A stretch of DNA of 64,000 bases, taken from the NCBI GenBank assembly GCA_021799485.1, contig JAJZAK010000008.1, forward strand, positions 5,569-69,568, in the 5' to 3' direction. The notes beneath the pieces are model-generated. The model made no database searches. It saw only the letters and a program-made list of their open reading frames with translations, and was not told the DNA's origin. The DNA comes from a bacterium. GTDB taxonomy: Bacteria; Elusimicrobiota; Elusimicrobia; UBA1565; UBA9628. Positions within the stretch are counted from its first letter, which is position 1; every line of letters starts with the position of its first letter. Positions 8,452-24,565 of the stretch are shown one piece after another. The translations under genes and the position numbers were made by a program.

Positions 8452-9177
8452 TTAAAACGTATACGCCAGAGCGGCCGTGGCGCCGAAGCCGACATAGCCC
8501 ACCCCGCCGGGGCTTGTGATGGAATGGAGCCCGTCCAAGGCGATGTTCATGCGCCAATGGGTGTCGGGAATCTGCCGCTCCCAGCCCAAGGCGACGTCCC
8601 AGGCGGCCGACGGCCCCGTGAGGGGCGTGAGGAAGGAGCCGGCCGGAGCGCCCGTCATGTCCGCGGCCTCGACTCCCGCGCGAAGGATGACGTAGCGGGT
8701 CTGGGACGTCCCCAACGGGACGAGGGCGAACTCAAGGCCGACGGGAATCGCCCATCGAACGAGGTCCGCCGTGGCGCCGGAGCTTTCTTTCTCGTCCATG
8801 GGAACTCCTTCAAAACCCGCGTAACCCCTGACCCATGTGAAAAAATGCCGTTCGTAAAGCGCCCGCGCTCCCAAGAGCCCCCCCGCCGTCGATCCGTAGC
8901 CGTTCTTATCATAAGGGTAAATCGTCACGGTCGCCGGCGCCAATTCCAAAGCCCAGGCCGGCCGCTCCGCCGCGACGGTCCCCCGAGGGAGAGCGATGTC
9001 GCGAGCCTCGCCTTTCGGCATGGGCTGATTCGACCGAAGGTAATCCAAGAACTCCCGCTTGTCCTGATCGGTCCAGTCCTTCTGGTCGCCGAGGGGCGGG
9101 ACCTGTTGGGCGGCGACCCGCGCGGCGGGCAGCGCGACAAGGCCGGCCCATAGAAGAAAGTAGCCTTGAAATCGCAC
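8452..9177 (-). CDS. hypothetical outer-membrane beta-barrel protein
   Basis: Signal peptide, alternating hydrophobic beta-strand pattern and a C-terminal ...ALAYTF ending in an aromatic residue, as in OMPs. Confidence 0.4.
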   Translation of the reverse strand: MRFQGYFLLWAGLVALPAARVAAQQVPPLGDQKDWTDQDKREFLDYLRSNQPMPKGEARDIALPRGTVAAERPAWALELAPATVTIYPYDKNGYGSTAGGLLGARALYERHFFTWVRGYAGFEGVPMDEKESSGATADLVRWAIPVGLEFALVPLGTSQTRYVILRAGVEAADMTGAPAGSFLTPLTGPSAAWDVALGWERQIPDTHWRMNIALDGLHSITSPGGVGYVGFGATAALAYTF

Positions 9178-9201
9178 GGAGGATGCATTATACCTTTCCC
9201 G

Positions 9202-9666
9202 ATGTTTTCGACGGCCCGGCTCTTCCTGACGGCGCTGGCGCTGGCGGCGTTTCCATCAAGCAGCCAGGCCATGACGATCGCGCGGGCGCGCGACCGCGTC
9301 GTCGCCCTGACGATGCCCTATCTCAACATCCCCTACCTTTGGGGAGGCACAAGCCCGCGCACGGGGCTCGACTGCTCGGCCTTCGTCCAGCTCGTCTACC
9401 GGAAAGCGGGGTTTAATCTTCCTCGGGTGTCGCGCCAGCAATTCGCCGCGACGCGCTATCTCCCGCCGCGCCGGGTTCTCCCGGGCGACCTGATTTTTTT
9501 CTCGATGCATCATCCCCAAAGGCGCGTCGTCGACCATGTGGGAATCTACCTCGGCAAGGGCTACTTCATTCATGCCTCGGTGAGCGAGGGCGTCCATATC
9601 CAGTCGATCCTGGATCCTTATTACATTAAGAGGCTCGTTTCGATCCGCAAATACGCCGGATTTTAA
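9202..9666 (+). CDS. NlpC/P60 (C40) family peptidoglycan peptidase
   Basis: Signal peptide, then the YLWGGTSP.GLDCSAFVQLVY (catalytic Cys) and HVGIYLG (His) motifs of the C40 family. Confidence 0.8.
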   Translation: MFSTARLFLTALALAAFPSSSQAMTIARARDRVVALTMPYLNIPYLWGGTSPRTGLDCSAFVQLVYRKAGFNLPRVSRQQFAATRYLPPRRVLPGDLIFFSMHHPQRRVVDHVGIYLGKGYFIHASVSEGVHIQSILDPYYIKRLVSIRKYAGF

Positions 9667-11061: not shown

Positions 11062-11657
11062 AAGCCCTTCTCTTTTTAGACAGAAAATCTTCGAGGCGCG
11101 GCGGAGCCCTGCTGCGCGCGGTCGAGGAGGAACTGGGCGGCGCCGCCGAGGAACTGCGCGCCTATTTCGCCAGTTCCTCCCCCGACAGGGCCCTGAAGGC
11201 GGCCGGCCGCCTCGAGACGGCTCAAAGGAGGCTTGAAAGCGCCTCGAAATCGGCCGGGGATTCCATCGGACCCTCGGGCCTTCTCGCCCTGGAGCGCCTC
11301 CGCTCCGCATTCGATTCCTTGCGCTGGGCGGTCAAGGAGAACTCCTACTGGCGGCTGCCCCACGACCGCTCCGCGGGACGCGCGGCGTCCCATCTCGATG
11401 ACGCTCTGGGCAAACTGCGCCGAGCTCTCGCGGCCAGCTCGGCCGCCAAGCGCGAGCCCCTGCTTCTCGAGTCGCGCCGCTCGGTCCGGGCTCTGGCGCG
11501 CGTGCTGCGGGAGGGGCAGGAAAGGCTTTGGAAAGGGGACGCCCCCTTCATCCAGGGTCTTGAGCGGGGCGAGGTGCTGCGCCTGCTTCTTGAGGCGGCG
11601 GCGGCCCTCGACGAGGCCGTCGAGGGCTTTCTCCTTGAATCGGAGGGCTTGCGGTGA
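11058..11657 (+). CDS. hypothetical protein (Ala/Leu/Arg-rich, helical)
   Basis: 199-aa ORF that overlaps its neighbours by 4 bp in an operon-like arrangement. Confidence 0.35.
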   Translation: MKALLFLDRKSSRRGGALLRAVEEELGGAAEELRAYFASSSPDRALKAAGRLETAQRRLESASKSAGDSIGPSGLLALERLRSAFDSLRWAVKENSYWRLPHDRSAGRAASHLDDALGKLRRALAASSAAKREPLLLESRRSVRALARVLREGQERLWKGDAPFIQGLERGEVLRLLLEAAAALDEAVEGFLLESEGLR

Positions 11658-12250
11658 GCTCCAAGGGATTCATCGGCAAAATGACCGGGCGAATCAAGAA
11701 GTCCCTCATCCTTCTCGCCGCCTGGGCGGCGTTTTTCAGCTTCGCGACGCTTGCGAGGCTCTCGGTGGGTTTCGGCTTCGACGGAACCCTCGTGCAATCC
11801 GCGGCGGCCTTCTCCAAAGCCGCCGCGGTCGCGCCCGCGTGCTCAAGCGGTTTCTGGGCCGAGGTCAACCGCTCCTACGACCTCGAGCGCGTGAAAATAG
11901 TCCCTTACGCCCTCGCCTGGCTTTTCCGGCTCATGGGCTTTCGCGTCGAGGTCGTAAGCCCCCGTCCCGAACAGGGTTCGGAGCACCTCGTCAAGGACTG
12001 GCGCTATCTGCTTGCTCCGGGGCGCTTTGTCCTGGCCGGTTCCCTCGCGGGGCTTCTCGACAAGCTTAAAATGGGGCGCTTCGTCCTTTTCTTTTCCAGC
12101 TCGGCGTGGGAATTGAGCGCCGCCCGGGAAGCCGGCGTGCGCCCCCTGCGCATTCTACGGGATGGCGGCCCGCCGCCATGCCCCGAAGGCTCCGGACCGG
12201 AGCCGAACATCGCGGCGGAAACCTTGTGGGTTCCCTTGTCTCAATATTGA
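11654..12250 (+). CDS. hypothetical membrane-anchored protein with a degenerate HAD-like motif
   Basis: N-terminal TM helix. GFGFDGTL resembles HAD motif I (DxDGT) but the first Asp is replaced. Confidence 0.35.
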   Translation: MSSKGFIGKMTGRIKKSLILLAAWAAFFSFATLARLSVGFGFDGTLVQSAAAFSKAAAVAPACSSGFWAEVNRSYDLERVKIVPYALAWLFRLMGFRVEVVSPRPEQGSEHLVKDWRYLLAPGRFVLAGSLAGLLDKLKMGRFVLFFSSSAWELSAAREAGVRPLRILRDGGPPPCPEGSGPEPNIAAETLWVPLSQY

Positions 12251-12352
12251 CCCGTTTCCCCGCCATTCGCTAAAATCGACCGCATCGGCCATGTGCAAGA
12301 GGGCAGCCCGTCGTCGGAACGAACGGATGTGGCCAATTTGGCCATCGCCACG

Positions 12353-13141
12353 ATGAACCCTCAACGCCTCCCCCTCATCGCCGCCAACTGGAAAATGCAT
12401 TTGGGATTGGCCGACGCGGCCAAACTCGCGCGCGAGATTCGAGAGGGCGTGGGCGCGGGGGATGCCGAGGCCGCTCTCTGCGTTCCCTTTACGGCCCTGG
12501 CCGTCGTGGCCGAGATTCTCAAGGGAAGCCCCGTCAGGCTCGGGGCGCAAAATCTTCATTGGGAGCCCCAAGGAGCCTTTACGGGAGAGATTTCGGCCGC
12601 CCAACTGGCCGACGCGGGGTGCCGCTACGTGATCGTGGGGCATAGCGAACGGCGCCGTCTTTTCGGCGAGACGAACGCCATCGTCGCGAAAAAGCTCGCC
12701 GCGGCGCTTGCCGCGGGCCTTCTGCCGATCCTCTGCGTGGGAGAAACCCTGGAGGAGCGCGAAAGCCAGAGGACGTGGGGGGTGCTCGCCGAGCAATTCC
12801 GCGCCGCCCTCAAGGACCTGCCGCCGGTCGAGGCGGCCGAGATCACGCTGGCCTACGAGCCCGTCTGGGCGATCGGGACCGGCAAAACCGCCTCCCCCTC
12901 CCAGGCCGAGGAAGCCCATGCTTTCATCCGCAAGCTTGCCTCCCAGGCCCACGGCGAGGGCTTCGCGTCGGCCCTGCGCATCCTTTATGGCGGCTCGGTC
13001 AAGGCCGACAACATCGACGCCCTCATGGCCCAGCCGGATGTCGACGGCGCCCTGGTCGGCGGGGAGAGCCTCAAGCCGATCTCTTTCCTCCGCATTGTCC
13101 ATTACAAGACCCTCGCGGACGCCGGAACACGGAGGCCCTGA
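12353..13141 (+). CDS. tpiA: triosephosphate isomerase. First gene of the BMC cluster
   Basis: NWKM (Lys), GHSERR (His) and AYEPVWAIGTG (Glu) catalytic motifs. Confidence 0.9.
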   Translation: MNPQRLPLIAANWKMHLGLADAAKLAREIREGVGAGDAEAALCVPFTALAVVAEILKGSPVRLGAQNLHWEPQGAFTGEISAAQLADAGCRYVIVGHSERRRLFGETNAIVAKKLAAALAAGLLPILCVGETLEERESQRTWGVLAEQFRAALKDLPPVEAAEITLAYEPVWAIGTGKTASPSQAEEAHAFIRKLASQAHGEGFASALRILYGGSVKADNIDALMAQPDVDGALVGGESLKPISFLRIVHYKTLADAGTRRP

Positions 13142-13779
13142 TGGACCAGGACCCCGAACTCGCCAGGCGCATCACCGCGGAAATCGTCTCGCGCATGGAG
13201 CGCTCGAAGACCGCGATCCCCGTCGGGGTTTCGAACCGCCACGTCCACTTCCGGCAGGAGGACTTCGACGTCCTCTTCGGCAAGGGCGCGGCGGTGCGTA
13301 AATTCAAGCAGGTCAAGCAGCCCGGCTTCTACGCCTGCTACGAGACCGTGGACATCGAGGGGCCCAAAGGCGCCATTAAAAACGTCCGCCTCGTGGCGCC
13401 CCACCGCTCCAAGACACAAATTGAGATTTCGCAGACCGACGCCCAGGCCCTGGGCCTGCGGCCTCCGATCCGCGACTCGGGGGATCTCGCGGGCTCCTCC
13501 CGCGTGCGCGTGATCGGCCCCAAGGGCTCTCTTGAGATCAAGGAAGGCCTCATCGTCGCGCGGCGCCACATCCATTTCCACCCGCTCGAGGCCAAGGCCA
13601 TGGGCATCCATGACGGCGAGAGCGTTCGCGTGCGCGCCGGGACGAAGGGGCCGCGCGAACTCGTCTTCGAGCAGGTGCTCTGCCGCGTCTCGGACAAGTT
13701 CAGCCTTGAGTTCCACGTCGACACCGACGAGGCCAACGCCGCCTGGATCCGGAGCGGCGACGAGGTCCGCATCGTCTGA
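13141..13779 (+). CDS. pduL: phosphate acyltransferase PduL (BMC-associated phosphotransacylase)
   Basis: Two PduL repeats with PVGVSNRHVHF and RRHIHFHP metal-site motifs. N-terminal amphipathic helix (ELARRITAEIVSRM). Confidence 0.85.
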   Translation: MDQDPELARRITAEIVSRMERSKTAIPVGVSNRHVHFRQEDFDVLFGKGAAVRKFKQVKQPGFYACYETVDIEGPKGAIKNVRLVAPHRSKTQIEISQTDAQALGLRPPIRDSGDLAGSSRVRVIGPKGSLEIKEGLIVARRHIHFHPLEAKAMGIHDGESVRVRAGTKGPRELVFEQVLCRVSDKFSLEFHVDTDEANAAWIRSGDEVRIV

Positions 13780-13816
13780 TTTCCATGTCGCAACAAGCTA
13801 AGCCAAGGAGATAACC

Positions 13817-14116
13817 ATGTACGCACTCGGCATGATCGAAACAAGAGGCCTCGTCGCCTGCGTCGAGGCCGCGGACGCCGCCGTCAAGGCCGCGGACGTG
13901 AGGCTTGTCGGCTACGAGAAGGTCGGAACGGGCCTCGTGACCATCCTCTTCCGGGGCGAGGTCGCGGCCTGCAAGGCTTCCTGCGACGCCGGCGCCGCCG
14001 CCGCGCAGAAAGTGGGAGAGCTCATCGCCGTCCATGTGATCCCGCAGCCTCACCCGGACCTCGAGGGGAAGATGCCCATTTCCCTTCCCGAGACCTTAAG
14101 CCGCAACAAGAGATAA
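13817..14116 (+). CDS. BMC shell protein, hexamer-forming (BMC-H, PduA/EutM family)
   Basis: [26 protein letters not shown]...VGYEKVG.GLVT...GEVAACKAS is the canonical BMC domain. Confidence 0.9.
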
Positions 14117-14147
14117 CGGAACCGGCAACGGACCGTTTCTTCCTGCA

Positions 14148-14468
14148 ATGATCTTCGCGCGCGTGACGGGAACAGTCGTCTGCACCCTGAAAGACGAGAA
14201 GCTCGTGGGCTTCAAGCTTCTTCTCGTCCAGCCCGTCGACCTCAAAAATGAGCCCCGGGGCAACCCTCTGGTGGCGGTCGACACGGTGGGCGCGGGGGAG
14301 GGGGAACTCGTCCTCGTCGTCCAGGGCTCCTCCGCGCGCCAGACCGTCCGGACGCAGGAACGCCCCGTGGACGCCTCCATCTTCGCCATCATCGACTCGG
14401 TCGAGGAGGGAGGCCGGCGGGTCTTTGAGAAGGCCTCCGACGCCCAGCCGGCAAGGAACTCCCGTTGA
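14148..14468 (+). CDS. BMC vertex protein (BMC-P, EutN/PduN/CcmL family)
   Basis: MIFARVTGTVVCT...LLLVQP...VAVDTVGAG.GELVLVVQGSSAR matches the EutN/CcmL fold. Confidence 0.85.
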   Translation: MIFARVTGTVVCTLKDEKLVGFKLLLVQPVDLKNEPRGNPLVAVDTVGAGEGELVLVVQGSSARQTVRTQERPVDASIFAIIDSVEEGGRRVFEKASDAQPARNSR

Positions 14469-15910
14469 GCATGGCCCCGGAGGATCTGGCGAACGTCGTC
14501 GCGCAAGTCCTTGATCGCCTCAAGGCCCAGGGCACGATGAACCCCTCCTGGGGCGCGGCGGGGAACGCGGCTCGCGACTCCGACGTCGTCTTTCCAAGCG
14601 TCAATGACGCCGTCAAGGCCGCCCGCGCCGCCCAGGAGGAGTTCCAGCGCCTGGGCCTTGAGGCGCGGCGCAAGATTATCGACGCCATGCGAAAGGCCGC
14701 GATCGCCAACGCCGAGCGCCTGGCGCGTATGGCCGCCGAGGAGACGGGGATGGGACGCGCGGAGGACAAGGCCCAGAAAAACCTTCTCTGCGCCCTAAGG
14801 ACGCCCGGCGTCGAGGACCTGGAGTCCCGCGCTTACACGGGAGACAAGGGCCTCACCTTGGTCGAATACGCCCCCTTCGGGGTCGTCGCGGCCGTCACCC
14901 CCTCGACGAACCCCGGCGCGACCGTCATCAACAACTCGATTTCGATCCTCTCGGCTGGAAACGCCGTCGTCTTCTCGCCGCATCCGGCCGCGGCGAAATG
15001 CTCGACCGAGGCGATGCGGATCCTGAGCGCGGCCGCCGTCCAGGCCGGCGCGCCGCCCGACCTCATGGTCACGGTCTCCCCCGCGTCCCAGGAGACGACG
15101 AAGGCCCTTTTGGCCCACCCGGACGTGCGCGTGAATCTCGTGACCGGCGGCCCCGCCATCGTCAAGGTCGCGATGACGGTCGGCAAAACCTGCAAAACGA
15201 TCGCGGCGGGGCCGGGCAACCCCCCGGCGGTGGTGGACGAAACCGCGAATTTCCCGCAATGCGCCTCGGACATCATCTTCGGCGCCTCTTTCGACAACAA
15301 CGTCCTGTGCACCGCGGAGAAGGAGACGATCGTCGTCGAGCCCGCCTGGAGCCGGTTTCTGGAATGCATGCGCCGGGACGCGCGCGCCTTCGAGCTCTCC
15401 TCCGCCCAGCTTGACGCCTTGACGAAGCTTGTCATCGTCGAAGGGGGCCGCGGCTGCAAGGACCCCCGGCTCAACCGGGAGTACGTCGGCAAGGACGCCG
15501 CCTACATCGCGAAAGGAATAGGCCTTGCGGTCCCGCCGCAGACCAAGCTCCTCTGGGCCCAGGTCCCCAACGATCACCCGCTCGTCTGGACCGAGCAATT
15601 GATGCCGGTCATGCCCGTGACCAGGGTTCCCGACGTCGATTCCGCGATCGAACTCGCCTACGCGGCCGAGGGGGAGAACCACCACACGGCCTCCATGCAC
15701 TCGACCCATGTCGGCAATCTGACCCGCATGGGCCGGCGCATGCAGTGCTCGATTTACGTCAAGAACGCGCCGAACCTCTACGGGCTCGGCATGGGCGAGG
15801 GCTACGCCTCCATGTCGATCGGGACTCCGACGGGGGACGGGCTCACGAAAGCCATGCACTTCGCCCGGCCGCTCCACTGCAGCCTGGTCGGCTACTTCAG
15901 GATCGCCTAA
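14465..15910 (+). CDS. CoA-acylating aldehyde dehydrogenase (PduP/EutE type)
   Basis: Active-site region SFDNNVLCTAEKE matches the PduP catalytic-Cys motif. N-terminal helix NVVAQVLDRLKAQ resembles an encapsulation peptide. Confidence 0.9.
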   Translation: MSMAPEDLANVVAQVLDRLKAQGTMNPSWGAAGNAARDSDVVFPSVNDAVKAARAAQEEFQRLGLEARRKIIDAMRKAAIANAERLARMAAEETGMGRAEDKAQKNLLCALRTPGVEDLESRAYTGDKGLTLVEYAPFGVVAAVTPSTNPGATVINNSISILSAGNAVVFSPHPAAAKCSTEAMRILSAAAVQAGAPPDLMVTVSPASQETTKALLAHPDVRVNLVTGGPAIVKVAMTVGKTCKTIAAGPGNPPAVVDETANFPQCASDIIFGASFDNNVLCTAEKETIVVEPAWSRFLECMRRDARAFELSSAQLDALTKLVIVEGGRGCKDPRLNREYVGKDAAYIAKGIGLAVPPQTKLLWAQVPNDHPLVWTEQLMPVMPVTRVPDVDSAIELAYAAEGENHHTASMHSTHVGNLTRMGRRMQCSIYVKNAPNLYGLGMGEGYASMSIGTPTGDGLTKAMHFARPLHCSLVGYFRIA

Positions 15911-15930
15911 TCAATCACAAGGAACTTCCC

Positions 15931-16482
15931 ATGCAAGCTCAACTCGCCGTCGGACTTCTGGAGACCTCCTCGATCGCCAAGGGGATCGAGGCGTCGGACG
16001 CCATGTGCAAGATGGCCTCGGTGTCCCTCGTCAAGACAGCCGTCATCGCCCGCGGGAAATACACGATTCTCATCTCGGGTCCCGTGGGGGAAGTCGAAAG
16101 CTCGCTTCGCGCCGGCCGCGAAATCGCGGGCAAAACGAAGATCGACGAAGTCATCATCCGCAACGTCCATTCCCAGGTCCTGGAGGCCTTGGAGAAGCGC
16201 CGTCCCGTCGAAAGCCTCGGCGCCGTCGGGATCATCGAGACCAAGGAGGCGATCTCGACCGTCATGGCCGCGGACGCCGCCGCGAAGGCCGCGCGCGTCC
16301 ATCTCTTGGAGGTCAAGACCGTCGTGGGCGGCGGCAAGGGCTACGTCACGATGACGGCCGACGTGGGCGCCGTCCGGTCCGCCGTCGCGGCCGGGATTTC
16401 GATTTTGCCCGAGGGGATGCTCGTCTCCCACGTCGTCATCCCCCAGGCCCACGAGCAGCTGTTGAAGACCATCGCCCGATGA
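15931..16482 (+). CDS. tandem-BMC-domain shell protein (BMC-T, PduT-like)
   Basis: About 184 aa holding two BMC domains (LAVGLLETSSIAKGIEASDAM... and LGAVGIIETKEAISTVMAADAAAKAA...). Confidence 0.85.
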   Translation: MQAQLAVGLLETSSIAKGIEASDAMCKMASVSLVKTAVIARGKYTILISGPVGEVESSLRAGREIAGKTKIDEVIIRNVHSQVLEALEKRRPVESLGAVGIIETKEAISTVMAADAAAKAARVHLLEVKTVVGGGKGYVTMTADVGAVRSAVAAGISILPEGMLVSHVVIPQAHEQLLKTIAR

Positions 16483-16961
16483 AGATTGTCGTCGGGTCGG
16501 ACCACGGGGGTTTCGCCGCCAAGGAATTCGCCAAGAAGAGGCTCCAGGCCGCGGGCCACGAAGTGGCGGATTTCGGGTGCCACTCGCCCGAGGCCGTCGA
16601 CTTCCCCGACGTGGCCCTTTTGGTCGGAGAGGCCGTGGCCTCGGGCGAATTCGAGAAGGGAGTCCTTTTAGACGGATTCGGCGGGGCCGTGGCTCTCGCG
16701 GCCAATAAGGTTCCCGGCGTCCGGGCCGTCGCGGCCTATAACTCCGTCTCCGCGCGCTTCGCGGCGGCCCACGACAACGCGAACATCCTCTGTCTCGGCG
16801 GGAAGACCCACGGCGAGGCGGCCTGGGACGAGATGCTGGAGGTCTTTTTCAAGACGCCGTTCGAAGGCGGCCGCCATGAGCGCCGGATCGCCAAGATCTC
16901 CCAGATCGAGCATAAATATTCGCCGCTCGCGGCCGACTGCGGCTGCCGGGGAGGCGCATAA
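16479..16961 (+). CDS. rpiB: ribose-5-phosphate isomerase B family (RpiB/LacAB)
   Basis: MKIVVGSDHGGF, ANKVPGVRAV, AHDNANIL and FEGGRHERRI align with RpiB throughout. The position of the E. coli catalytic Cys (CGTG) reads DGFG here. Confidence 0.8.
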   Translation: MKIVVGSDHGGFAAKEFAKKRLQAAGHEVADFGCHSPEAVDFPDVALLVGEAVASGEFEKGVLLDGFGGAVALAANKVPGVRAVAAYNSVSARFAAAHDNANILCLGGKTHGEAAWDEMLEVFFKTPFEGGRHERRIAKISQIEHKYSPLAADCGCRGGA

Positions 16962-16962
16962 C

Positions 16963-17256
16963 GTGCGTCTCGCGCGGATTTTAGGACGAGTCTTCTGCAC
17001 GAGGCAGGAGCCGTCGATCGAGGGGAAAAAGCTCCTCCTGATCCAGCCTCTAAATTGGGAGGACGAGTCGCCGGCGGGCCCCGCCATCGTCGCCGCGGAC
17101 GCCGTCGGCGCCGGAGCGGCGGAAAAGGTCTTCTGGGTGGCCGCGCGCGAGGCGGCCGTCGCCTTCGAGGACGTTCCTCCCGTCGACGCGGCCGTCGTCG
17201 GGATCGTGGACGGCCGCCGCGTCAAGAATTTCAGGACCGCCGGAGGCGCGGGATAG
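16963..17256 (+). CDS. BMC vertex protein (BMC-P) paralog 2
   Basis: GTG start 1 nt after the rpiB stop, with GGAGG 9 nt upstream. VRLARILGRVFCT...LLLIQP...VAADAVGAG fits the EutN/CcmL pattern. Confidence 0.75.
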   Translation: MRLARILGRVFCTRQEPSIEGKKLLLIQPLNWEDESPAGPAIVAADAVGAGAAEKVFWVAAREAAVAFEDVPPVDAAVVGIVDGRRVKNFRTAGGAG

Positions 17257-17258
17257 CC

Positions 17259-17555
17259 GTGTTCATCGCGAGCGTCGTGGGAAACGTCTGGGGAACGCGC
17301 AAGCATCCTTCGATGGAAAAACGCCGGCTGCTTCTCGTCCAACCAATCGACCCCTTGACGGAAAAGCCGCTGGGCGCCGCCGTCATGGCGATCGACGGCG
17401 GCGTCGAATCGGGTCCCGGAAGCGTCGTCTTGGTCATGGACGAGGGCAACGGCGCACGGCAGATTTTGGGCGACCGGAGGGCTCCGGTCCGCACCGTCGT
17501 CTGCGGCATCGTCGACAGAGTCGTGTCGGGGGGGACAGCCAAGCGCTATGAGTGA
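17259..17555 (+). CDS. BMC vertex protein (BMC-P) paralog 3
   Basis: GTG start 2 nt after the previous stop. [13 protein letters not shown]...LLLVQP...[10 protein letters not shown] fits the EutN/CcmL pattern. Confidence 0.7.
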
Positions 17556-18594
17556 GCCTGATATCAGAAAAATCGTCGAGGAGATCGTGGGCGTCCTCCA
17601 CAAGAGGGGCTATCTCGCCGGCCCAGATTCGGCATCCTCATCGAAGACCGATTGGCGAGACGGCGAGGGGTCGCTCAAGCCGCTGGAGAACGGCGCCCGG
17701 GCCACCGTCGGGACCGCCGGCAAGGTCTTCTCGGGCGATTGGCGCAAGACCCCGGCGGCGCCGTCGAGGGCCGTCTCTCCAACGGCCTCGTCGCCTTCCG
17801 GCGACGAGGATCACTCCGGATCCGACGCCTCCTGCCCTCACTGCGACAAAGTGTCGAGCTTGAGCGAAAAGGATTTGAAGGAATTGGGCCTCGACCGCAT
17901 CGCCGTCTGCAAGCCGGCGAAAAGCCGCTCTCCCATCGCGCGGCTCGTCGACCACACTCTCTTGAAGCCCAACGCGACCCAGGAGGAGATCGCGAAGCTC
18001 TGCGAGGAGGCCAAGACCTACTGCTTCGCCTCCGTCTGCATTCCTCCGAGCTATGTTCCGCTTTCCGCAAGGCTCCTGACGGGCAGCGGCGTCAAGGTCT
18101 GCACGGTGATCGGCTTTCCGCTCGGCTCCACCACCTCGACCGTCAAGGCCGTCGAGGCGCGCGACGCGATCGCGGGAGGCGCCGAGGAAATCGACATGGT
18201 GCTCAATATCGGCGCCTTGAAGTCCGGCAACGACGCCTTGGTCCTCTCCGATATCCGGGCCGTTCGGGAAGCGACGCGCGGACGCGTGCTCAAGGTGATT
18301 CTTGAAACCTCGCTTTTGTCCCAGGACGAGAAGGTTCGCGCCTGTCTCCTCTCGAAAAAGGCCGGCGCCGACTTCGTCAAGACCTCGACGGGCTTTGGCG
18401 GGGGCGGAGCGACCGTCGAGGATATCCGGCTCATGCGCGAGACCGTCGGCCCCTTGATGGGGGTCAAGGCCTCGGGCGGCATCCGGTCGGCCGACGCGGC
18501 CGAGGCCATGGTGCGCGCCGGGGCGACAAGGCTCGGAACCTCGGCAAGCGTCGCCATCGTCACCGGTTCGGAGCCGGCCTCGGGGAAATATTAG
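17548..18594 (+). CDS. deoC: deoxyribose-phosphate aldolase (DERA/DeoC, class I) with a 120-aa N-terminal extension
   Basis: DERA core [16 protein letters not shown]...CIPPSYV...[10 protein letters not shown]...KVILET...DFVKTSTGF (Schiff-base Lys). Preceded by an amphipathic helix ([18 protein letters not shown]) and a Ser/Pro/Gly-rich linker. Confidence 0.85.
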
Positions 18595-18616
18595 GGCTTG
18601 CGCCACGATCATATGA

Positions 18617-18943
18617 GTGATCACGATCATGTCCAAAAATAAGCCCGCCAAATTCAAGCTCACGATCGACTTCCAATGCGGCTCCTGCGGCGCCCTCATC
18701 CACCAGGCGCCTGGAACCTCGCCGGAAAAAACGGTCGCCCCCAAATTCTGCCCTCGATGCGGGGCGGGCATGGAGCGCTTCTGCCTCGCCTGCCGCAAGA
18801 AGGCGGACATGTTTTTCGAGGAGTGGTGGCCGGAGGACGATGAATGCGTGCGGACCTACAGCCCCGCCAAGCGCTGCGGCTCGTGCGGGGCGATCCTCGA
18901 GCAGGAGAAAAAGATGGACGAGGGCGATTGGAGCGAGGCATAA
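18617..18943 (+). CDS. small four-CxxC zinc-ribbon protein of unknown function inside the BMC locus
   Basis: CGSC, CPRC, CLAC and CGSC motifs; about 105 aa. The start may instead be at MSKNKP (18629). Confidence 0.5.
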
Positions 18944-18957
18944 AAAAGGAGGCTCTT

Positions 18958-19263
18958 ATGGCGGAAGTTTCCGTTCGTGAGGCCCTGGGGCTCGTCGAGA
19001 CCAAGGGCTTCGTCGGGATGATTGAGGCGTCGGACGCGATGGCCAAGGCGGCCAAGGTCCGGCTCCTGGGATACGAGAAGATCGGCTCGGGGCTCGTCAC
19101 CACCCTGTGCCGCGGAGAAGTCGGAGCGGTGCGGGCAGCCATCGACGCGGCCGCGGCCGCGGCCCAGAAAGTGGGCGAACTCGTCAGCGTCCATGTGATT
19201 CCTCGCCCGCACGACGATTTGGAGAAGTATCTCGACCAAATCTCGATCAAGATCGCGCGCTAA
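18958..19263 (+). CDS. BMC shell protein, hexamer-forming (BMC-H) paralog 2
   Basis: [25 protein letters not shown]...[11 protein letters not shown]...[13 protein letters not shown] is the canonical BMC domain. AAGGAGG RBS upstream. Confidence 0.9.
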
Positions 19264-19299
19264 GACGTCGTTGAGCGCAGGCGCCGCCCATTCATCGCG

Positions 19300-19596
19300 A
19301 TGCTGACCCGCGACGATCTTATCGATCTGATCGTCTCCCAGCTCACGCCGCTCAAGGCCGGGAATTCCGCGCCCGCCCCGTCCACGCCCGGCGATAGGAG
19401 GACGGCGGACATGGGCAAGCAAAAAGCGGGAAAAACCTCCGACGGCCCCGCCGGGAGGATCTTCGTTTCGGAATATGAGATCAAGAAGCTGCTCAAGCCG
19501 GGCGCCAAGGAGATTCGACTGCCGGCTGGAGCCATCGTGAGCCCCCTGGCCGCGGACTGGCTGACCCTCCAGGGCGTTCGCATCGTGCGCCCATGA
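19300..19596 (+). CDS. small BMC-locus protein with an N-terminal encapsulation-peptide-like helix, a linker and a conserved C-terminal mini-domain
   Basis: MLTRDDLIDLIVSQLTPLKAG amphipathic helix, low-complexity linker, then RIFVSEYEIKKLLKPGAKEIRLPAGAIVSPLAADWL. Confidence 0.45.
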   Translation: MLTRDDLIDLIVSQLTPLKAGNSAPAPSTPGDRRTADMGKQKAGKTSDGPAGRIFVSEYEIKKLLKPGAKEIRLPAGAIVSPLAADWLTLQGVRIVRP

Positions 19597-20105
19597 GCTC
19601 CTTGCCGCCGGAAAAAGCCCTGGGCATCTGGACCGACCTCGAAGCCGTTTTCAGCGTTATCTCCGATTCAGCCCTCAAACCGCCCGAGCGCGCCTGTCTC
19701 CCGACAGCGCCGGAGTCGTCGCCCCCCGCCGCGAAATCCGCCTCCCGAAGCCCGGGAACATCCCTGCTCGCCTTCATTCGAACCGCCAAGAGCGCGGCCG
19801 CGAAAGAGCGCTTGGCTTCTCTTCTCAAGACTCTCTCCTCCGGCGCGACCAAGAGCCCCCTCGCGATCGAGGAATGCCTTGATCGGACGGTGATGGAGGG
19901 AGAGGACCCCTTCGCCGTCGCGGCGGAAGCGAAGGCGGCCGGCGCGGATCTCGCCGTCGTCATTCCAGACGGCCTCAACGCCGATTGGCTCAAGGTTCTC
20001 GCGGCGGCCTTGCGCGCCACGGGCATCGCCCGGCACCAGATCGACGCCTTCTCCGCGGGACGCAAGGCCGCCGTCATCGAAATCATCTTTAAGCTTCAAT
20101 TCTAA
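19593..20105 (+). CDS. hypothetical protein
   Basis: 170-aa ORF overlapping the upstream gene by 4 bp. Confidence 0.35.
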   Translation: MSSLPPEKALGIWTDLEAVFSVISDSALKPPERACLPTAPESSPPAAKSASRSPGTSLLAFIRTAKSAAAKERLASLLKTLSSGATKSPLAIEECLDRTVMEGEDPFAVAAEAKAAGADLAVVIPDGLNADWLKVLAAALRATGIARHQIDAFSAGRKAAVIEIIFKLQF

Positions 20106-20107: not shown

Positions 20108-21592
20108 TTGCCAAGCCCAAAGTCGAGCGCTCCCGTGACTTCGCCGAGCTGGCTTCTCAAGCCCGCGCCGTCAAGCCGCGATCCTCTCCGCCATCTGCTT
20201 TTCATCAAGGGAAGCCTCAAGGACATCTCCGCTCTCGTGGCGAAGATGGGCGCCCTCTGCGGCAGGCCCGACTCCTCGTCCTGCCCGGAGGGCTTCGATT
20301 ACAAGCTCTACCTCCATCAGCTCGACGAACGCGCGCGCCGGATGATCCTCGCGGCCCTGGAGGACATCTCTCCGGCGCCTCGAAAAAGCCCTCGGCCCTC
20401 TCGCGCCGATCCGGACATCCCCGCCGGGCCTGGTCCCAGGCGCTTCGACTCGGGCCAGACCTTCGACGCCTTTTGCGTGGGCCCCTCCAACCGCTTGGCT
20501 TTCGCCGCGGCCCGAGAGGCGGCCGCCTCTCCGGGAATGCTGCACAACCCCCTCGTCATCCGGGGACCGTCCTCCTCCGGCAAGACCCATCTTCTCAACG
20601 CCATCATGGGGGAAGTCGAGCGCCGCTGGGGGCCCGGAAGCGCGATGTTCGTCGGCGCCCTCGATCTCGAGCTCGGTGCGGCAGGGGCCTTGCGCGCGGG
20701 AAAAGCAGAGGCCTTCGGCGCGGCCTTCCGTTCGCGGCGCGCTCTTCTCATCGACGACGCCCATCTCCTGGGGCCTGGAACGGGCGCGCGGCTTGCGGCG
20801 GGAATCGCCGCCGACTACTGCCGCCGCGGCCTCCAGGTCGCCGTCGCGGCGGATTCGGATCTCATGGGCCGGCAAGCCAATGAGTTGACGGCGCCCTCCG
20901 GAGATCTGGCGCGGGAAGTCGCGGCCTCCCCGCCTTCGGGAAAGCTCCTCTTCGCGGCCGCGGACCGTTTTTTCAGCCGCAACGGACTCCTTGTCGAGCC
21001 CGAGGCGCTTGAGGCCATGCTCTCGGAGCTCCCGGATGATGGAGGATTCCCCGTCCTTTATCCCTGGCTCAGAAGGATCGGGGCCTTGCGGCGAATCGGC
21101 TTCTCGAGCGCTTTCGATTTATCCCTGGAACCGCTCAAGGCGGCGGGCCTTCTCGACGCGGGAGCCGCGCGCGACAGCGGAAAGCCGCGACGCCTCGCCT
21201 TCTTCTATCCCGAAAGCCTAAAGGCCGGCGCCGGGGCGTCCTTGGACCGGTTTTTGGCGGAGGGCCGCCGACGGCCCCAGTTGCCCCGCTACGAGCCCGT
21301 CTTGGCGCGCCCGTATCCCGAGATGAACGCTCCGGGAAAAGACGGCCTCCTCGCCGCGACCGCCCGCGCGCGCTTCTCCTGCGACGCCGCCGTCGTCGCG
21401 GACGGCGACGCCGACGACTGGATCGCCGCGGCGAGAAGCCCCCGCGCGCGCCGCCTCCTCTCGGCTATCGCCGGCCAGGGCCTGGCCTGCGCGGCGCTCC
21501 CGGCGAACCAAGAGTCGGAGCCGGACGCCTATCTCGCGGCTCACGCGGATCTTCTCCACGCCTTTTTTCATCATTATGACGCAAACCCTTAA
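20108..21592 (+). CDS. DnaA/Hda-like AAA+ ATPase domain protein (DnaA paralog lacking domain IV)
   Basis: TFDAFCVGPSNRLAFAAAREAA...NPLVIRGPSSSGKTHLLNAI and LLIDDAHLL match the DnaA/Hda Walker A and B regions. Much longer than Hda. Confidence 0.55.
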   Translation: MPSPKSSAPVTSPSWLLKPAPSSRDPLRHLLFIKGSLKDISALVAKMGALCGRPDSSSCPEGFDYKLYLHQLDERARRMILAALEDISPAPRKSPRPSRADPDIPAGPGPRRFDSGQTFDAFCVGPSNRLAFAAAREAAASPGMLHNPLVIRGPSSSGKTHLLNAIMGEVERRWGPGSAMFVGALDLELGAAGALRAGKAEAFGAAFRSRRALLIDDAHLLGPGTGARLAAGIAADYCRRGLQVAVAADSDLMGRQANELTAPSGDLAREVAASPPSGKLLFAAADRFFSRNGLLVEPEALEAMLSELPDDGGFPVLYPWLRRIGALRRIGFSSAFDLSLEPLKAAGLLDAGAARDSGKPRRLAFFYPESLKAGAGASLDRFLAEGRRRPQLPRYEPVLARPYPEMNAPGKDGLLAATARARFSCDAAVVADGDADDWIAAARSPRARRLLSAIAGQGLACAALPANQESEPDAYLAAHADLLHAFFHHYDANP

Positions 21593-22994
21593 TCTCACGT
21601 TATGCGCCGCGGCGCTCTCGGCTCTGGCTCTCGCCGCTTGGGCGCTCGCCGTCAACCGGAGGCTGCGCCGCGAACTCGCGGACTCCCGATCCGAATCCCA
21701 GGAAGCCCTGGCCGCGGCGCGGGAAAAGTCCCTCCACCGCCGCCGGGAGGTCAAGACCCTGCGGGTGGTGGCCGCGGCGCTGACCGCCCAAGCCGAGCAG
21801 GCGAGACCGGCGTTCAGCGCGGTGGTCACGATCGTCGCCAAATACCTCAAGGCGGACCTCGCGGCCCTCATGGCGCTCGACGAGGAGACGATGGATCTCG
21901 TCACCCAACCGGGCGCCTTCGGCTTGGACAGCGAGGACCAGTTCTACCGCATCCCCATTTCCGCGGAGAATTCCTCATCGGTCCGGGTCTTCAAATCCGG
22001 GGAGCCGTTCATGACCGGCGACGCCCAGAGCGACCCCTCCGTCGCCGCCGGATACGCCAAGCTCTGGAACATCCGATCTCTCATGGTGGTTCCCTTGAAA
22101 ACCAAGTCCCACTCCCTCGGCGTCCTGCGGGTGGGAAGCATCCGCCCTCATTCCTTCACGCCGAACGACCTGCGCTTCGCCCGACTCATCGCCGACGAGG
22201 TCGCCATCCTCGTCGAAACGGCCATGCTCAACAGGAAGTTGTCCTGGGCGACGGAACAATTGGAGGCCCTCAACCGTATTAAAGATGAGTTCGTGTCGAC
22301 GGCAAGCCATGAGTTCCGCACTCCCTTGACGACGCTGGGTGGGTTTTTAACCATCCTCATGGAGGGCGAGGCGGGGCCGCTGACCGAGAAACAGACGGGT
22401 TTTTTGAACATGGCCTTGAAATCGGTGCGGCGCCTGGAGGCGATCGTTTTGGAGCTCTTGGATCTGACGAGGCTCGAGGGGGGAGTTCCCATGGAGATGC
22501 GCCCTCTCCGAATCGCGGAGATCGTCGAATCGAGCGTCGACTCTCACGCCCCGCAGGCCTTAAACGCCCAGAAGGTCGTCTCCATGGACCTTCCCGGCGA
22601 TCTCCCCCTCGTCATGGGGGACCCTAAATGGCTTTCCCTCGTCGTGGACAATATCCTGTCGAACGCCTTGAAATTCACGCGGCCGGGGGGGCAGGTGAGG
22701 ATTTCGGCGCGCGACAAGGGAGAATTCATCGTCGTCTCCATCCAGGATAACGGCATCGGCATCCCCCCCTCGGAGCATCACCGCATCTTCGAGAAATTTT
22801 TCCGCGCCTCCAACCATACCGAGGTCAAGGCCCCGGGGACGGGACTAGGGCTGGCGCTCTGCCGGGAGGTCATCTCCAAGCACGGCGGGCGGATCTGGTT
22901 CGACTCCCAGCCCGGCCTCGGGACCACCTTCCATTTCCTGCTCGTCCGACAGAGGGAGCCCGGAGGCGCCGACGGGGAAGGGACGCCGCCATGA
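21576..22994 (+). CDS. sensor histidine kinase with a GAF-like sensor domain
   Basis: N-terminal TM helix. H-box ASHEFRTPLTTL, then N/G1/G2 HATPase_c motifs (NALKFT, DNGIGIP, GTGLGL). Confidence 0.8.
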   Translation: MTQTLNLTLCAAALSALALAAWALAVNRRLRRELADSRSESQEALAAAREKSLHRRREVKTLRVVAAALTAQAEQARPAFSAVVTIVAKYLKADLAALMALDEETMDLVTQPGAFGLDSEDQFYRIPISAENSSSVRVFKSGEPFMTGDAQSDPSVAAGYAKLWNIRSLMVVPLKTKSHSLGVLRVGSIRPHSFTPNDLRFARLIADEVAILVETAMLNRKLSWATEQLEALNRIKDEFVSTASHEFRTPLTTLGGFLTILMEGEAGPLTEKQTGFLNMALKSVRRLEAIVLELLDLTRLEGGVPMEMRPLRIAEIVESSVDSHAPQALNAQKVVSMDLPGDLPLVMGDPKWLSLVVDNILSNALKFTRPGGQVRISARDKGEFIVVSIQDNGIGIPPSEHHRIFEKFFRASNHTEVKAPGTGLGLALCREVISKHGGRIWFDSQPGLGTTFHFLLVRQREPGGADGEGTPP

Positions 22995-24565
22995 TCGCCC
23001 GGACGCACTCCCTCGCTCTGCGGGGCTTGGAGGGCTACTGCGTCGCCGTCGAGGCGGACGTCGCCAACGGCCTCCCGGCCTACGCGGTGGTCGGGCTCCC
23101 CGACGCGGCCGTCCGGGAGTCCAAGGAAAGGCTCACGGGCGCCTTGCGCAACTCGGGCTTTTTCCTCGCGCCCAAACGGATCACCGTCAATTTGTCGCCC
23201 GCCCGGGCCCGCAAGGAAGGCTCCCATTTCGACCTGGCGATCGCCGTCGCCCTCCTCAAGGCCACGGGCCAAATCCCGAAAGGCATCTCCGGAGCCCGGC
23301 TCTGCCTGCTGGGAGAACTCGCCTTGGACGGGACGGTCGTGAGAATCGAATCGACGCTGCCGTTGGCCTTGGAGGCGAAGCGTCTCGGCTTCGCGGCGCT
23401 GGCGGTTCCCGCGGCGAACGCCGAGGAAGCCGCGGCGGCCGGCCTTCCCGTCTATCCCGTCAATTCCCTTCGCGAGGCGGCCGGCCTTCTCGGAGCCTCC
23501 GACGATGAAAAACCGCGGCCCTACGCCGCCGCCGGAGGCGCCACGAGCGACGAGCCGGGGGCCGGAGGCTCCGAGGACCTTTCCGACATCAAGGGACAGG
23601 CCTTCGCCAAGCGCGCCATGATCGTCGCCGCGGCCGGCGCGCACAACATCCTCCTCATCGGCCCTCCCGGCACGGGGAAATCCCTTCTCGCCAGGCGCCT
23701 TCCGGGCCTCCTCCCCCCGCTCGGAACCCAGGAGATGATCGAGATCACGCGCATCCACGCCCTCTCGGGGCGCGGCGGCCCGGCGCGCTCGGGTCTCATC
23801 CGGGAGAGACCTTTCCGCGCTCCCCATCATTCGGCCTCCGCCGTCGCGCTCGTGGGCGGGGGGCCCTGGGCCAAGCCCGGGGAAGTCGCGCTGGCGCACC
23901 ACGGCGTCCTTTTTCTCGACGAACTCGCCGAATTTTCCCGCCAGGCGCTCGAGGCGCTCCGGGAGCCCATCGAGGAGGGCCGCATCACGGTCGCCCGCGC
24001 GCGAGAGTCCGTCGAGTACCCGGCCCGCTTCATGCTCGTCGCGGCGACGAACCCCTGCCCTTGCGGCTTCCGGGGCCATCCCCGCCGCGAATGTCTCTGC
24101 ACCCCCTTGATGCTGGGGCGCTATGCCCAGCGGCTCTCGGGCCCGCTCCTCGACCGCATCGACATCCTGGCCGAGATGAACCCCCTCGCCTTCGACGAAT
24201 GGTCCGGAGAGGCGCGCGAGACCGCCGCGCCCTCCTCGGCGACCGCGCGGCAGGCCGTTCTCGGGGCCCGGAAGTCGCAGGAAGATCGCTTCCAAGGAAT
24301 GGATTTCGCCGTCAACGCCCGCATTCCTCCGAGGGAGCTGCCCCGTTTCTGCCGCTTGGACGGCGACGGGCTCAAGCTCCTCGAAGCCGCCTCTCGGAGA
24401 TGGTCCGTTTCCGCGAGAAGCCTGGATCGCACGCTCAGGCTGGCGAGAACGATCGCGGATCTTGGAGACAGCTCCGACATCCGGCGCGAACACGTGGCCG
24501 AGGCCCTCGATTTCAACCGCCTGGAGCGGCTCTGGGCCGAGCCCGCGGCCCCGGCGGCGCCATGA
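22991..24565 (+). CDS. YifB/ComM family Mg-chelatase-like AAA+ ATPase
   Basis: N-terminal Lon-like domain, Walker A LLIGPPGTGKS, and the ChlI-type ordering with HHSAS and VLFLDELAEF. Confidence 0.85.
   Translation: MIARTHSLALRGLEGYCVAVEADVANGLPAYAVVGLPDAAVRESKERLTGALRNSGFFLAPKRITVNLSPARARKEGSHFDLAIAVALLKATGQIPKGISGARLCLLGELALDGTVVRIESTLPLALEAKRLGFAALAVPAANAEEAAAAGLPVYPVNSLREAAGLLGASDDEKPRPYAAAGGATSDEPGAGGSEDLSDIKGQAFAKRAMIVAAAGAHNILLIGPPGTGKSLLARRLPGLLPPLGTQEMIEITRIHALSGRGGPARSGLIRERPFRAPHHSASAVALVGGGPWAKPGEVALAHHGVLFLDELAEFSRQALEALREPIEEGRITVARARESVEYPARFMLVAATNPCPCGFRGHPRRECLCTPLMLGRYAQRLSGPLLDRIDILAEMNPLAFDEWSGEARETAAPSSATARQAVLGARKSQEDRFQGMDFAVNARIPPRELPRFCRLDGDGLKLLEAASRRWSVSARSLDRTLRLARTIADLGDSSDIRREHVAEALDFNRLERLWAEPAAPAAP

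Follow-up and report, generated by a model that had tools for sequence, protein, structure and literature searches.

A probable sugar-phosphate-utilising microcompartment operon of the SPU1 subtype in an uncultivated member of the Elusimicrobia

Bacterial microcompartments (BMCs) of the sugar-phosphate-utilising (SPU) class are the closest described relatives of the operon analysed here, which occupies positions 12353-19596 of a 64,000-nucleotide stretch of DNA (hereafter the window; contig JAJZAK010000008.1 of assembly GCA_021799485.1) from a bacterium of the Elusimicrobia. The definition of the class goes back to Axen et al. 2014; Sutter et al. 2021 widened it to seven subtypes with more than 280 loci, an adjacent pair of BMC-P genes being described for all SPU loci (PMC8217296). 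Subtype SPU1 comprises 62 loci, all from Elusimicrobia (PMC8217296, Supplementary Data 2). It is characterised by genes for DERA (deoxyribose-5-phosphate aldolase) and RPI (ribose-5-phosphate isomerase) adjoining two BMC-P genes, by an aldehyde dehydrogenase (AldDH), a phosphotransacylase (PTAC) and a triosephosphate isomerase (TIM) in the locus, by a BMC-H pair with the motifs KAAK/PRPH and KAA(N/D)/PQPH, by a PduT-related BMC-Ts without the pore cysteine, and by the lack of a BMC-Tdp (PMC8217296). Dwyer, Sutter and Kerfeld 2024 re-curated 206 SPU loci and described on all SPU DERAs an N-terminal helix extension, in which an amphipathic helix is followed by two beta-strands and which is absent from housekeeping DERA (PMC11585597). 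The same authors purified the DERA and the RPI of an SPU6 locus and found the DERA active in cleaving deoxyribose-5-phosphate. They also reported that the catalytic Cys is replaced by Asp in all SPU RPIs, that the SPU6 RPI has negligible activity on ribose-5-phosphate, that the SPU6 DERA and RPI form a 1:1 complex, and that the subtypes with a PTAC (SPU1, 4 and 7) are without BMC-Tdp (PMC11585597). More recently, SPU-like shells from Asgard archaea were reconstituted (2025 preprint, PMC12747264).

Our analysis indicates that the locus in the window is very probably a BMC operon of the SPU1 subtype, belonging to an uncultivated member of the Elusimicrobia and working by the published SPU mechanism. 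Domains were called on the translated open reading frames (ORFs) with Pfam gathering thresholds and NCBIfam cut-offs. The region 12353-19596 holds 13 genes, all on the + strand like every gene of the operon described below, with an intergenic spacing of -8 to +37 bp that leaves no space for a further gene. The order is TIM, PduL, BMC-H, BMC-P, AldDH, BMC-T, RpiB, BMC-P, BMC-P, DERA, a zinc-ribbon protein, BMC-H and a 98-aa protein. The Pfam E-values of the 11 domain assignments at the locus range from 1e-17 to 1e-91, all above the gathering thresholds, and the GC content across the region is ~65%. As judged from the sequence, every SPU1 feature that was tested appears to be present, namely gene content, gene order, BMC-H motifs, type of BMC-Ts, lack of BMC-Tdp and host. 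The enzymes are the same (DERA, RPI, AldDH, PTAC and TIM), RPI and DERA flank two BMC-P genes, and the locus has the BMC-P triplet, both BMC-H motif pairs and the Cys-less BMC-Ts of the SPU1 catalogue. No defining feature differs; the copy in the window is contiguous, whereas that in the metagenome-assembled genome (MAG) DBS1-2.bin105 is fragmented.

An earlier, sequence-only reading of this DNA had seen here an SPU-type metabolosome distinct from the propanediol (PDU), ethanolamine (EUT) and glycyl-radical (GRM) types, and this is borne out and can be refined to SPU1 by the catalogue comparison. Its description of closely spaced or overlapping same-strand genes agrees with our count in all respects except their number, given as fourteen; the fourteenth gene (170 aa, 19593-20105) lies past the end of the region. 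The shell proteins that it listed pass the BMC hidden Markov models (PF00936 and PF03319), and the five enzymes (a PduP-type AldDH, PduL, DERA, RpiB and TIM) pass Pfam and, for AldDH, PduL, DERA and TIM, also NCBIfam. Its statement that the SPU class is experimentally uncharacterised is outdated, given the SPU6 enzymology (PMC11585597) and the Asgard SPU-like shells (PMC12747264).

The signature enzyme of the locus is a DERA of 348 aa (17548..18594; PF01791 DeoC, 1.1e-17), which scores 292 bits against the deoC equivalog model TIGR00126 (cut-off 117). Its catalytic domain, residues 129-341, aligns with 283.6 bits to the best solved bacterial DERA, 8qps. Residues D216, K278 and K307 align with D102, K167 and K201 of the E. 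coli enzyme and are, together with the C-terminal Tyr, invariant in 23 homologues, and the protein is thus predicted to be catalytically intact. The aldolase domain is preceded by an N-terminal extension of 128 aa (17548-17931) that is conserved among homologues and starts with a confident amphipathic helix; an aldolase lacking a BMC-associated extension had been named beforehand as an observation that would speak against an SPU assignment. In an AlphaFold2 model the helix spans residues 3-19 (pLDDT ~88; hydrophobic moment 0.67, strongly amphipathic), residues 28-93 have pLDDT <50, and the barrel (129-340) is mostly above 90. The SPU1 catalogue states that the DERA extensions "do not resemble EPs" (encapsulation peptides), whereas the confident amphipathic helix made by the first 19 residues of the DERA in the window agrees with the revision of 2024. 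The linker of the SPU1 family also contains conserved islands, GTAGKVF at 53-61, C96-x2-C99 and C121, and a distant SPU1-like DERA (L021, positions 3-857; the loci labelled L0xx are contigs of relatives, mostly Elusimicrobia MAG loci, compared by tblastn of the window proteins) has a ferredoxin-like CxxCxxC within its extension. Since the conserved C96xxC99/C121 and the CxxCxxC of L021 lie in the same region, metal binding by the linker is possible, and its sequence suggests that it may be more than a spacer.

The aldehyde released by DERA could be handled by a CoA-acylating AldDH of 479 aa (14471..15910; PF00171, 8.4e-35), which scores 574 bits (cut-off 403) against NF011927, the EutE/PduP type. 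Its best solved relative is the Rhodopseudomonas palustris aldehyde dehydrogenase 5jfl, which we take to be a BMC-associated PduP-type enzyme; the two align over the full length with 401 bits, and the catalytic Cys is kept in this alignment, within FDNNVLCTAEKE. The AldDH N-terminus, EDLANVVAQVLDRL, has a hydrophobic moment of 0.63, and the Aldedh domain begins later, at residue 43. Next in the pathway would be a PduL-type phosphotransacylase of 212 aa (13141..13779), with PF06130 at residues 27-202 (6.4e-70), 246 bits against NF011652 (cut-off 209) and the RHVH and RHIH motifs. Its residues 1-25 ahead of the domain, ARRITAEIVSRMER, have a hydrophobic moment of 0.61. The N-terminal amphipathic helices of DERA, AldDH and PduL thus resemble encapsulation peptides of the targeting type, and all three enzymes are predicted to be encapsulated.

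The shell set is encoded by six genes, for two BMC-H, one tandem BMC-T and three BMC-P. The BMC-H paralogues, 99 aa with motifs KAAD/PQPH (13817..14116; PF00936, 8.5e-28) and 101 aa with motifs KAAK/PRPH (18958..19263; PF00936, 6.9e-28), are 68% identical, and their interface motifs are charge-complementary. Among the BMC-P paralogues, P1 (106 aa, 14148..14468; PF03319, 1.6e-33) is encoded by a stand-alone pentamer gene, while P2 (97 aa, 16963..17256; 7.8e-22) adjoins P3 (98 aa, 17259..17555; 1.1e-21); the identities are 48% for P1-P2, 40% for P1-P3 and 36% for P2-P3. The BMC-Ts is a PduT-like tandem-domain trimer protein of 183 aa (15931..16482) with two PF00936 domains (1.4e-38). It matches TIGR02526 (eut_PduT) with E = 9.5e-33 and 113 bits, below the cut-off of 250.3 bits, which indicates a family resemblance only. 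Its closest solved relatives are 3nwg and PduT (3pac/3n79), and it has ARGKY where 3nwg and PduT have CPGK(F/Y), so that the pore cysteine is absent. As ARGK replaces the Fe-S-ligating CPGK of PduT, the protein should be unable to ligate an Fe-S cluster. No BMC-Tdp and no additional PF00936 gene was found among the called genes of the window.

The two remaining enzymes carry no comparable targeting helix. TIM (262 aa, 12353..13141; PF00121, 1.8e-91; TIGR00419) has intact catalytic motifs (NWKMH, GHSERR and YEPVWAIGTG). Its start is ambiguous between GTG 12293, GTG 12329 and ATG 12353; when the ATG is taken as the start, alignments with homologues set in at residue 1-5, which rules out a hidden N-terminal encapsulation peptide. 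The RpiB-family protein (160 aa, 16479..16961; PF02502, 1.1e-45) starts 4 bp before the BMC-T stop, and therefore no N-terminal extension is possible; a hidden encapsulation peptide was ruled out here also, the upstream frame being taken by the BMC-T gene and the off-frame translation being Arg-rich. The active site of RpiB reads LDGFG where that of Clostridium thermocellum RpiB (3he8) reads ICGTG, which corresponds to the catalytic Cys-to-Asp exchange, and the orthologues in L014 and L015 likewise carry LDGFG or IDGFG. This exchange, together with the inactivity on ribose-5-phosphate of the SPU6 RPI with the same change, makes RpiB doubtful as a ribose-5-phosphate isomerase, and it is probably not a working one.

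The only SPU locus with enzymology is the SPU6 locus of Chloroflexi bacterium GWB2_54_36 (PMC11585597), and it shares with the window locus the DERA catalytic residues and N-terminal helix, the Cys-to-Asp exchange of RPI, the AldDH and the BMC-P triplet. The two differ in that SPU6 has a BMC-Tdp and no PTAC, whereas the window locus has PTAC and TIM and no BMC-Tdp. The SPU6 RPI carries an N-terminal EP and a linker of ~75 residues, and RpiB in the window has neither; the EP of AldDH is C-terminal in SPU6 and N-terminal here, and the DERA extension is ~70 aa in SPU6 compared with 128 aa. The SPU-like loci of the Asgard Hodarchaeales resemble the window locus in the DERA and AldDH core, in PTAC, RPI and the H, P and Ts shell proteins, and in the proposed entry metabolite, deoxyribose-5-phosphate (PMC12747264). 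Unlike the window locus, they encode MNdh (PduS) and a BMC-Ts with a CPGK Fe-S site for NAD+ recycling; a flavoprotein domain is fused to their DERA, one pentamer bears a DNA-binding K/R-rich tail, and a citrate synthase is encoded as well. The window locus has none of these. The genome scan also turned up, in Candidatus Heimdallarchaeota bin272 (L025, CP070760.1, 10001-10660), a DERA with 64% identity in the catalytic domain, which agrees with the account of SPU-like microcompartments in archaea given by the 2025 preprint (PMC12747264).

The exact DERA protein of the window is found on 15 metagenome contigs. The closest homologues that are not identical to it have 58-74% identity and lengths mostly of 320-360 aa; those with a name come from Elusimicrobia MAGs, as does every named homologue at 61-80% identity. 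A scan of species-representative genomes gave full-length matches in Elusimicrobia MAGs only. The closest species-representative genome is MAG DBS1-2.bin105, in which the locus is split over two contigs and the locus proteins are 57-98% identical to those of the window (84-98% for shell proteins and enzymes). By tblastn, ten independent Elusimicrobia loci, among them L009+L011, L010, L012-L016, L089 and L090, were found to have a common gene order, that is AphA-like, TIM, PduL, H, P, AldDH, Ts, RpiB, P, P, DERA, zinc-ribbon, H and 98-aa protein. The homologous loci are thus SPU1 loci of Elusimicrobia, not the EUT or PDU systems that would have argued for another identity. Some of them are interrupted. 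L015 has a DNA methyltransferase and a probable restriction enzyme between RpiB and BMC-P (7316-9377), L016 a methyltransferase between the two adjacent BMC-P genes (5181-6116), and L014 a 194-aa ORF within an otherwise syntenic SPU1 operon (8576-9160); these foreign insertions are not in the operon of the window.

The shared gene order begins upstream of TIM with an AphA-like gene (class B acid phosphatase; 11654..12250 in the window, identified by orthologue alignment), whose product has an N-terminal membrane or signal segment. Orthologues lie 5' of TIM in L009, L010, L014, L015, L089 and L090. Five of the orthologues carry the motifs VGFDYDDT and GDSDSD, as in E. coli AphA, and the one in L090 gives a faint PF03767 match. 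In the window and in L009 the motifs read VGFGFDGT and SSSAWE. All four catalytic aspartates are thus replaced, and the gene in the window consequently looks like that of a dead enzyme; its product matches the solved AphA structures weakly over the full length (E ~0.1), and its membership of the operon is uncertain. Further upstream, L089 (1-2765) and L090 (1-2915) encode a PHO4 phosphate transporter, PhoU and a UshA-type 5'-nucleotidase (Metallophos and 5_nucleotid_C), which fits extracellular nucleotide scavenging feeding the organelle. A 5'-nucleotidase of this kind was sought at 300-6544 of the window and was not found; what this part encodes, besides a TPR protein and two unknown proteins, is a six-hairpin, MGH1-like glycoside hydrolase and an FGGY-family sugar kinase. 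The last two (3584-6544, + strand, ~6-9 kb upstream of the operon) have no evident link to the BMC.

In the mechanism that we favour, 2-deoxyribose-5-phosphate from the breakdown of DNA or deoxynucleosides would cross into the shell, where DERA would split it to give glyceraldehyde-3-phosphate along with acetaldehyde. The shell would retain the volatile and toxic acetaldehyde, AldDH would oxidise it to acetyl-CoA with conversion of NAD+ to NADH, and PduL would regenerate CoA within the shell with release of acetyl-phosphate. Exit of the acetyl-phosphate via small pores would fit the absence of the large-pore BMC-Tdp. Glyceraldehyde-3-phosphate would leave for glycolysis, and TIM would most likely equilibrate it with dihydroxyacetone phosphate (DHAP) outside or at the shell, where it is placed for want of a targeting peptide, while the most likely role of RpiB is to bind DERA as a packaging partner and not to isomerise ribose-5-phosphate. 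We infer in this way the substrate, the direction of flux, the set of lumenal proteins and the partner role of RpiB. A nucleotide-derived substrate is supported by the active-looking AphA-like genes upstream in five relatives, two of which also have UshA, PhoU and PHO4. That DERA is the source of the aldehyde, and that AldDH and PduL carry it on to acetyl-CoA and acetyl-phosphate, had been proposed in the sequence-only reading and is supported by both sequence and literature. Its placing of TIM and RpiB on the sugar-phosphate side holds for TIM, which is intact, and is doubtful for RpiB, in view of the LDGFG site and the SPU6 RPI that is inactive on ribose-5-phosphate.

Several points weigh against this mechanism. 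All enzymology so far was done on a single SPU6 locus, that of a Chloroflexi MAG, and no SPU1 locus has been the subject of an experiment. Both DERA and AldDH can run in either direction. The AlphaFold2 model does not show the two beta-strands described behind the helix of SPU DERAs, and residues 28-93 have low pLDDT in it; the conserved GTAGKVF and RIAVC segments of the extension could correspond to them. Among the called genes of the 64-kb window there is no gene for deoxyribose or nucleoside use (phosphopentomutase, nucleoside phosphorylase, transporter or deoA/B/D), and the local link to nucleotide scavenging is weakened in the lineage of the window by the loss of all catalytic aspartates from the AphA-like gene. 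Neither an alcohol dehydrogenase nor an acetate kinase is found in the locus, as had been noted before, and the same is true of the called genes of the whole window. No candidate enzyme for NAD+ regeneration was found either, with no PF00465, PF01512, SLBB or PduS/MNdh among these genes. In this the window departs from the complete core of the PDU/EUT paradigm, in which the shell genes are accompanied by an alcohol dehydrogenase, or by MNdh/PduS with an Fe-S BMC-T. The lack of an explanation for cofactor recycling, also pointed out earlier, is therefore a real gap. The same problem is recognised as unsolved for BMC loci that have neither alcohol dehydrogenase nor MNdh/PduS, and slow cofactor exchange through the BMC-T pores has been suggested for them (PMC11626177). 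A PduS/T satellite locus is present elsewhere in the genome in 5 of the 62 SPU1 genomes (PMC8217296). In the organism studied here, NAD+ might be regenerated by way of such a satellite locus in another part of its genome, through exchange across the shell, or by a component yet to be recognised.

Conserved genes that the text of the SPU1 catalogue does not mention are, besides the upstream AphA-like gene, the zinc-ribbon gene after DERA and the gene for the 98-aa protein. The first of the latter two encodes a nine-cysteine double zinc-ribbon protein of 104 aa (18629..18943) with only sub-threshold, generic zinc-ribbon matches in Pfam and NCBIfam. It contains four invariant CxxC pairs, the ninth Cys C73, H25 and an invariant insert motif. 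A word-based search gave 53 clusters at 90% identity, all of ~100 aa and from Elusimicrobia where named, and a full profile search gave 15 representatives among 1.84 billion, one of which is an apparent DERA-zinc-ribbon read-through fragment. The gene lies immediately 3' of DERA in every context examined (L010-L015, L019, L089, L090 and the P0154 contig). In L019, a 4.1-kb Elusimicrobia contig, positions 1874-3794 hold TIM, an extension-less DERA and the zinc-ribbon gene, followed by a gene for a PilT-like ATPase, with no shell genes; this may be an SPU1 remnant that has retained the DERA-zinc-ribbon pair. Since the pair occurs here without shell genes, the zinc-ribbon protein appears to be tied to DERA and not to the shell, as far as one short contig can tell.

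The second gene encodes a small conserved protein of 98 aa (19300..19596) without a Pfam match. Its N-terminus reads MLTRDDLIDL, and in a 28-sequence alignment M1-D6 and D9 are invariant and L7 and I8 are kept in at least 90%. The layout is an N-terminus predicted to be helical, a variable Ala/Pro-rich linker and a conserved C-terminal domain of 45 aa, and AlphaFold2 places a helix at 4-13 and a domain at 54-96 with pLDDT 79-90. The C-terminus weakly resembles that of TIGR02536 ("eut hypothetical"; E = 7.3e-5, below the cut-off), and a Foldseek search of the model against the PDB gave nothing under E = 0.5, so that no fold was assigned. Orthologues lie 3' of the second BMC-H in L010-L012, L014-L016 and L021. 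Alignment and model together suggest an encapsulation peptide joined to a small cargo or adaptor domain.

It is tempting to speculate that the zinc-ribbon protein, the CxxC...C of the DERA linker and the 98-aa protein are undescribed working parts of the SPU1 organelle, although we consider this unlikely on the whole. In one version the Cys-rich elements may bind iron and form a redox or adaptor module on DERA that replaces the electron export by MNdh/PduS-PduT. The zinc-ribbon knuckles (CGxCG...CPxCG) are indistinguishable by sequence from rubredoxin knuckles, and sub-threshold rubredoxin-like matches were obtained for 5 of 20 family members. The CxxCxxC of the L021 DERA, the flavoprotein fusion of the Asgard SPU-like DERAs and the shell-less DERA-zinc-ribbon pair of L019 would also be compatible with these readings. 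Against the redox version, no NADH-binding or flavin protein is encoded in the locus. In a weaker version the zinc-ribbon and 98-aa proteins may be new cargo-packing or scaffold proteins. At present, the zinc-ribbon family, the 98-aa protein and the phosphatase neighbourhood represent the residual novelty of the locus and offer testable leads, with no evidence yet for a new mechanism.

The main rival explanation, which we consider unlikely, is that the same organelle is run reductively and towards condensation, so as to take up NADH and store aldehyde, as in the Atribacteria BMC model of Nobu et al. 2016. PduL would then convert acetyl-phosphate to acetyl-CoA, AldDH would reduce this with NADH to acetaldehyde, and DERA would join the acetaldehyde to glyceraldehyde-3-phosphate, supplied from DHAP via TIM, to give deoxyribose-5-phosphate. 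All enzymes of such a route are reversible, and the equilibrium of DERA favours condensation. The position of TIM beside PduL at the head of the operon would suit a supply of glyceraldehyde-3-phosphate, and a reductive model has been described for BMC loci that bear DERA and RPI (PMC6281690). The locus, however, encodes no enzyme that consumes deoxyribose-5-phosphate further, the cofactor problem is the same but reversed, and the sole available enzymology measured cleavage (PMC11585597). The neighbouring genes of the relatives indicate nucleotide dephosphorylation and phosphate uptake, hence a catabolic supply of deoxyribose, and it is because these conserved neighbours point to nucleotide breakdown that we rate the reductive direction low compared with catabolic cleavage.

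The Asp-variant RpiB raises a further possibility, to which we give a low probability, that the protein actively isomerises some unusual phosphosugar and feeds or follows a different aldolase reaction, so that the substrate of the organelle would be another sugar phosphate. An NCBIfam scan of RpiB also showed similarity to the LacA, LacB and erythrulose-4-phosphate isomerase models. 2-Deoxyribose-5-phosphate itself has no C2 hydroxyl and is thus incapable of aldose-ketose isomerisation, which counts against a role for RpiB as an isomerase. Enzymes of the RpiB/LacAB family have broad and varied specificities, and the RpiB of Mycobacterium tuberculosis uses a carboxylate base (discussed in PMC11585597); moreover, RPI is kept beside DERA in nearly all SPU subtypes, which suggests that it matters (PMC11585597, PMC8217296). 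On the other hand, the DERA in the window is a deoC equivalog by a wide score (292 against 117 bits) with the full set of catalytic residues, and the SPU6 DERA is active on deoxyribose-5-phosphate (PMC11585597). In RpiB, the Thr of the active site is also changed, to Phe, beside the Asp (LDGFG), and Dwyer et al. found no role in the pathway for RPI activity (PMC11585597).

That the locus is an ordinary ethanolamine, propanediol or glycyl-radical metabolosome with its signature enzyme encoded just outside the operon has hardly any chance of being correct, since, although AldDH, PduL and PduT-like proteins are common to EUT and PDU, no EutBC, PduCDE, glycyl-radical enzyme or B12-related gene is found among the called genes of the window, DERA is embedded among the shell genes with an extension of the targeting type, and all syntenic relatives are DERA-centred. 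Within the window, such an identity was accordingly rejected for lack of its signature enzymes among the called genes. What the SPU1-type locus does share with EUT and PDU is the trapping of an aldehyde, an acylating AldDH with an N-terminal EP, PduL, a PduT-like trimer and the BMC-H and BMC-P proteins. It differs from them in that its signature enzyme is a cofactor-free class I aldolase, in contrast to the B12-dependent lyase or dehydratase of EUT/PDU. It also has three pentamer paralogues and neither an alcohol dehydrogenase nor PduS, and its predicted substrate is a sugar phosphate.

The 5' edge of the operon is clearly marked. The 102-bp gap upstream of TIM is the single sizeable intergenic gap of the region and contains a candidate sigma-70-like promoter, TTGACC-18-TAAAAT (12247..12276, + strand), with 10 of 12 consensus matches. 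Three sigma-70-like sites were found in 15.5 kb compared with 0.9 expected, and this one is the best match and the sole one on the + strand. Downstream, close packing (-17 to +29 bp) continues into the genes for a DnaA-like ATPase, a GAF histidine kinase and comM, and no operon end is visible; the 3' end at 19596 is for this reason a functional guess. A terminator scan gave 16 sites compared with 14.5 expected, none of which marks an operon end after 19596 or 20105, and an Rfam scan of the whole window found no riboswitch or leader RNA before the operon, the sole match being a tRNA at 48530-48613. The 170-aa ORF at 19593..20105, which overlaps the preceding gene by 4 bp, has no Pfam or NCBIfam match and an orthologue in L011 alone, the closest relative (56% identity), and it is probably no core component.

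Beyond this ORF lies a 485-aa DnaA paralogue (20135-21592, + strand), with Walker A/B motifs and a partial DnaA ATPase domain and without the DNA-binding domain IV, and directly after it the GAF histidine kinase (21576-22994, + strand). All seven Elusimicrobia loci that reach far enough, the window included, have a DnaA paralogue a few kb 3' of the second BMC-H, and in six of them the GAF kinase is next. The true dnaA-dnaN-gyrB-gyrA cluster is found at ~30.9-38.9 kb of the window, and we cannot tell whether the paralogue is related to the organelle or merely reflects a conserved gene order near the origin. The kinase is followed by comM (Mg-chelatase-like) and genes for a LysM protein and an HTH protein, then dprA and topA (22991-28958, + strand); the presence of the competence-associated comM and dprA near a putative DNA-sugar organelle we regard as a coincidence. 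At ~49000-62300, by the tRNA (48530-48613, - strand), the window contains a low-GC island (54-59% compared with ~65%) that resembles an integrated element. It encodes a 1626-aa DruE-like helicase (PADLOC DruE3, 5.4e-166), an adjacent 707-aa protein without a match, a DUF429 protein, an M78 peptidase with DUF4411, an integrase, an HTH protein and two N6/N4 DNA methyltransferases, and it may be a Druantia-type defence island.

Overall, the operon is a further example of a catalogued subtype with 62 published loci and no new kind of system. It is a contiguous, insertion-free SPU1 operon of 7.3 kb with well-defined gene starts, and because some of its relatives are interrupted it is a convenient template for synthesis and for the reconstitution of shell and cargo. 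It also sharpens two questions, namely how NAD+ is regenerated in such an organelle without an alcohol dehydrogenase or MNdh, and what role the Asp-variant RPI plays. SPU microcompartments are among the most widespread types, and their presumed task, in many anoxic habitats, is the recycling of deoxyribose from DNA.

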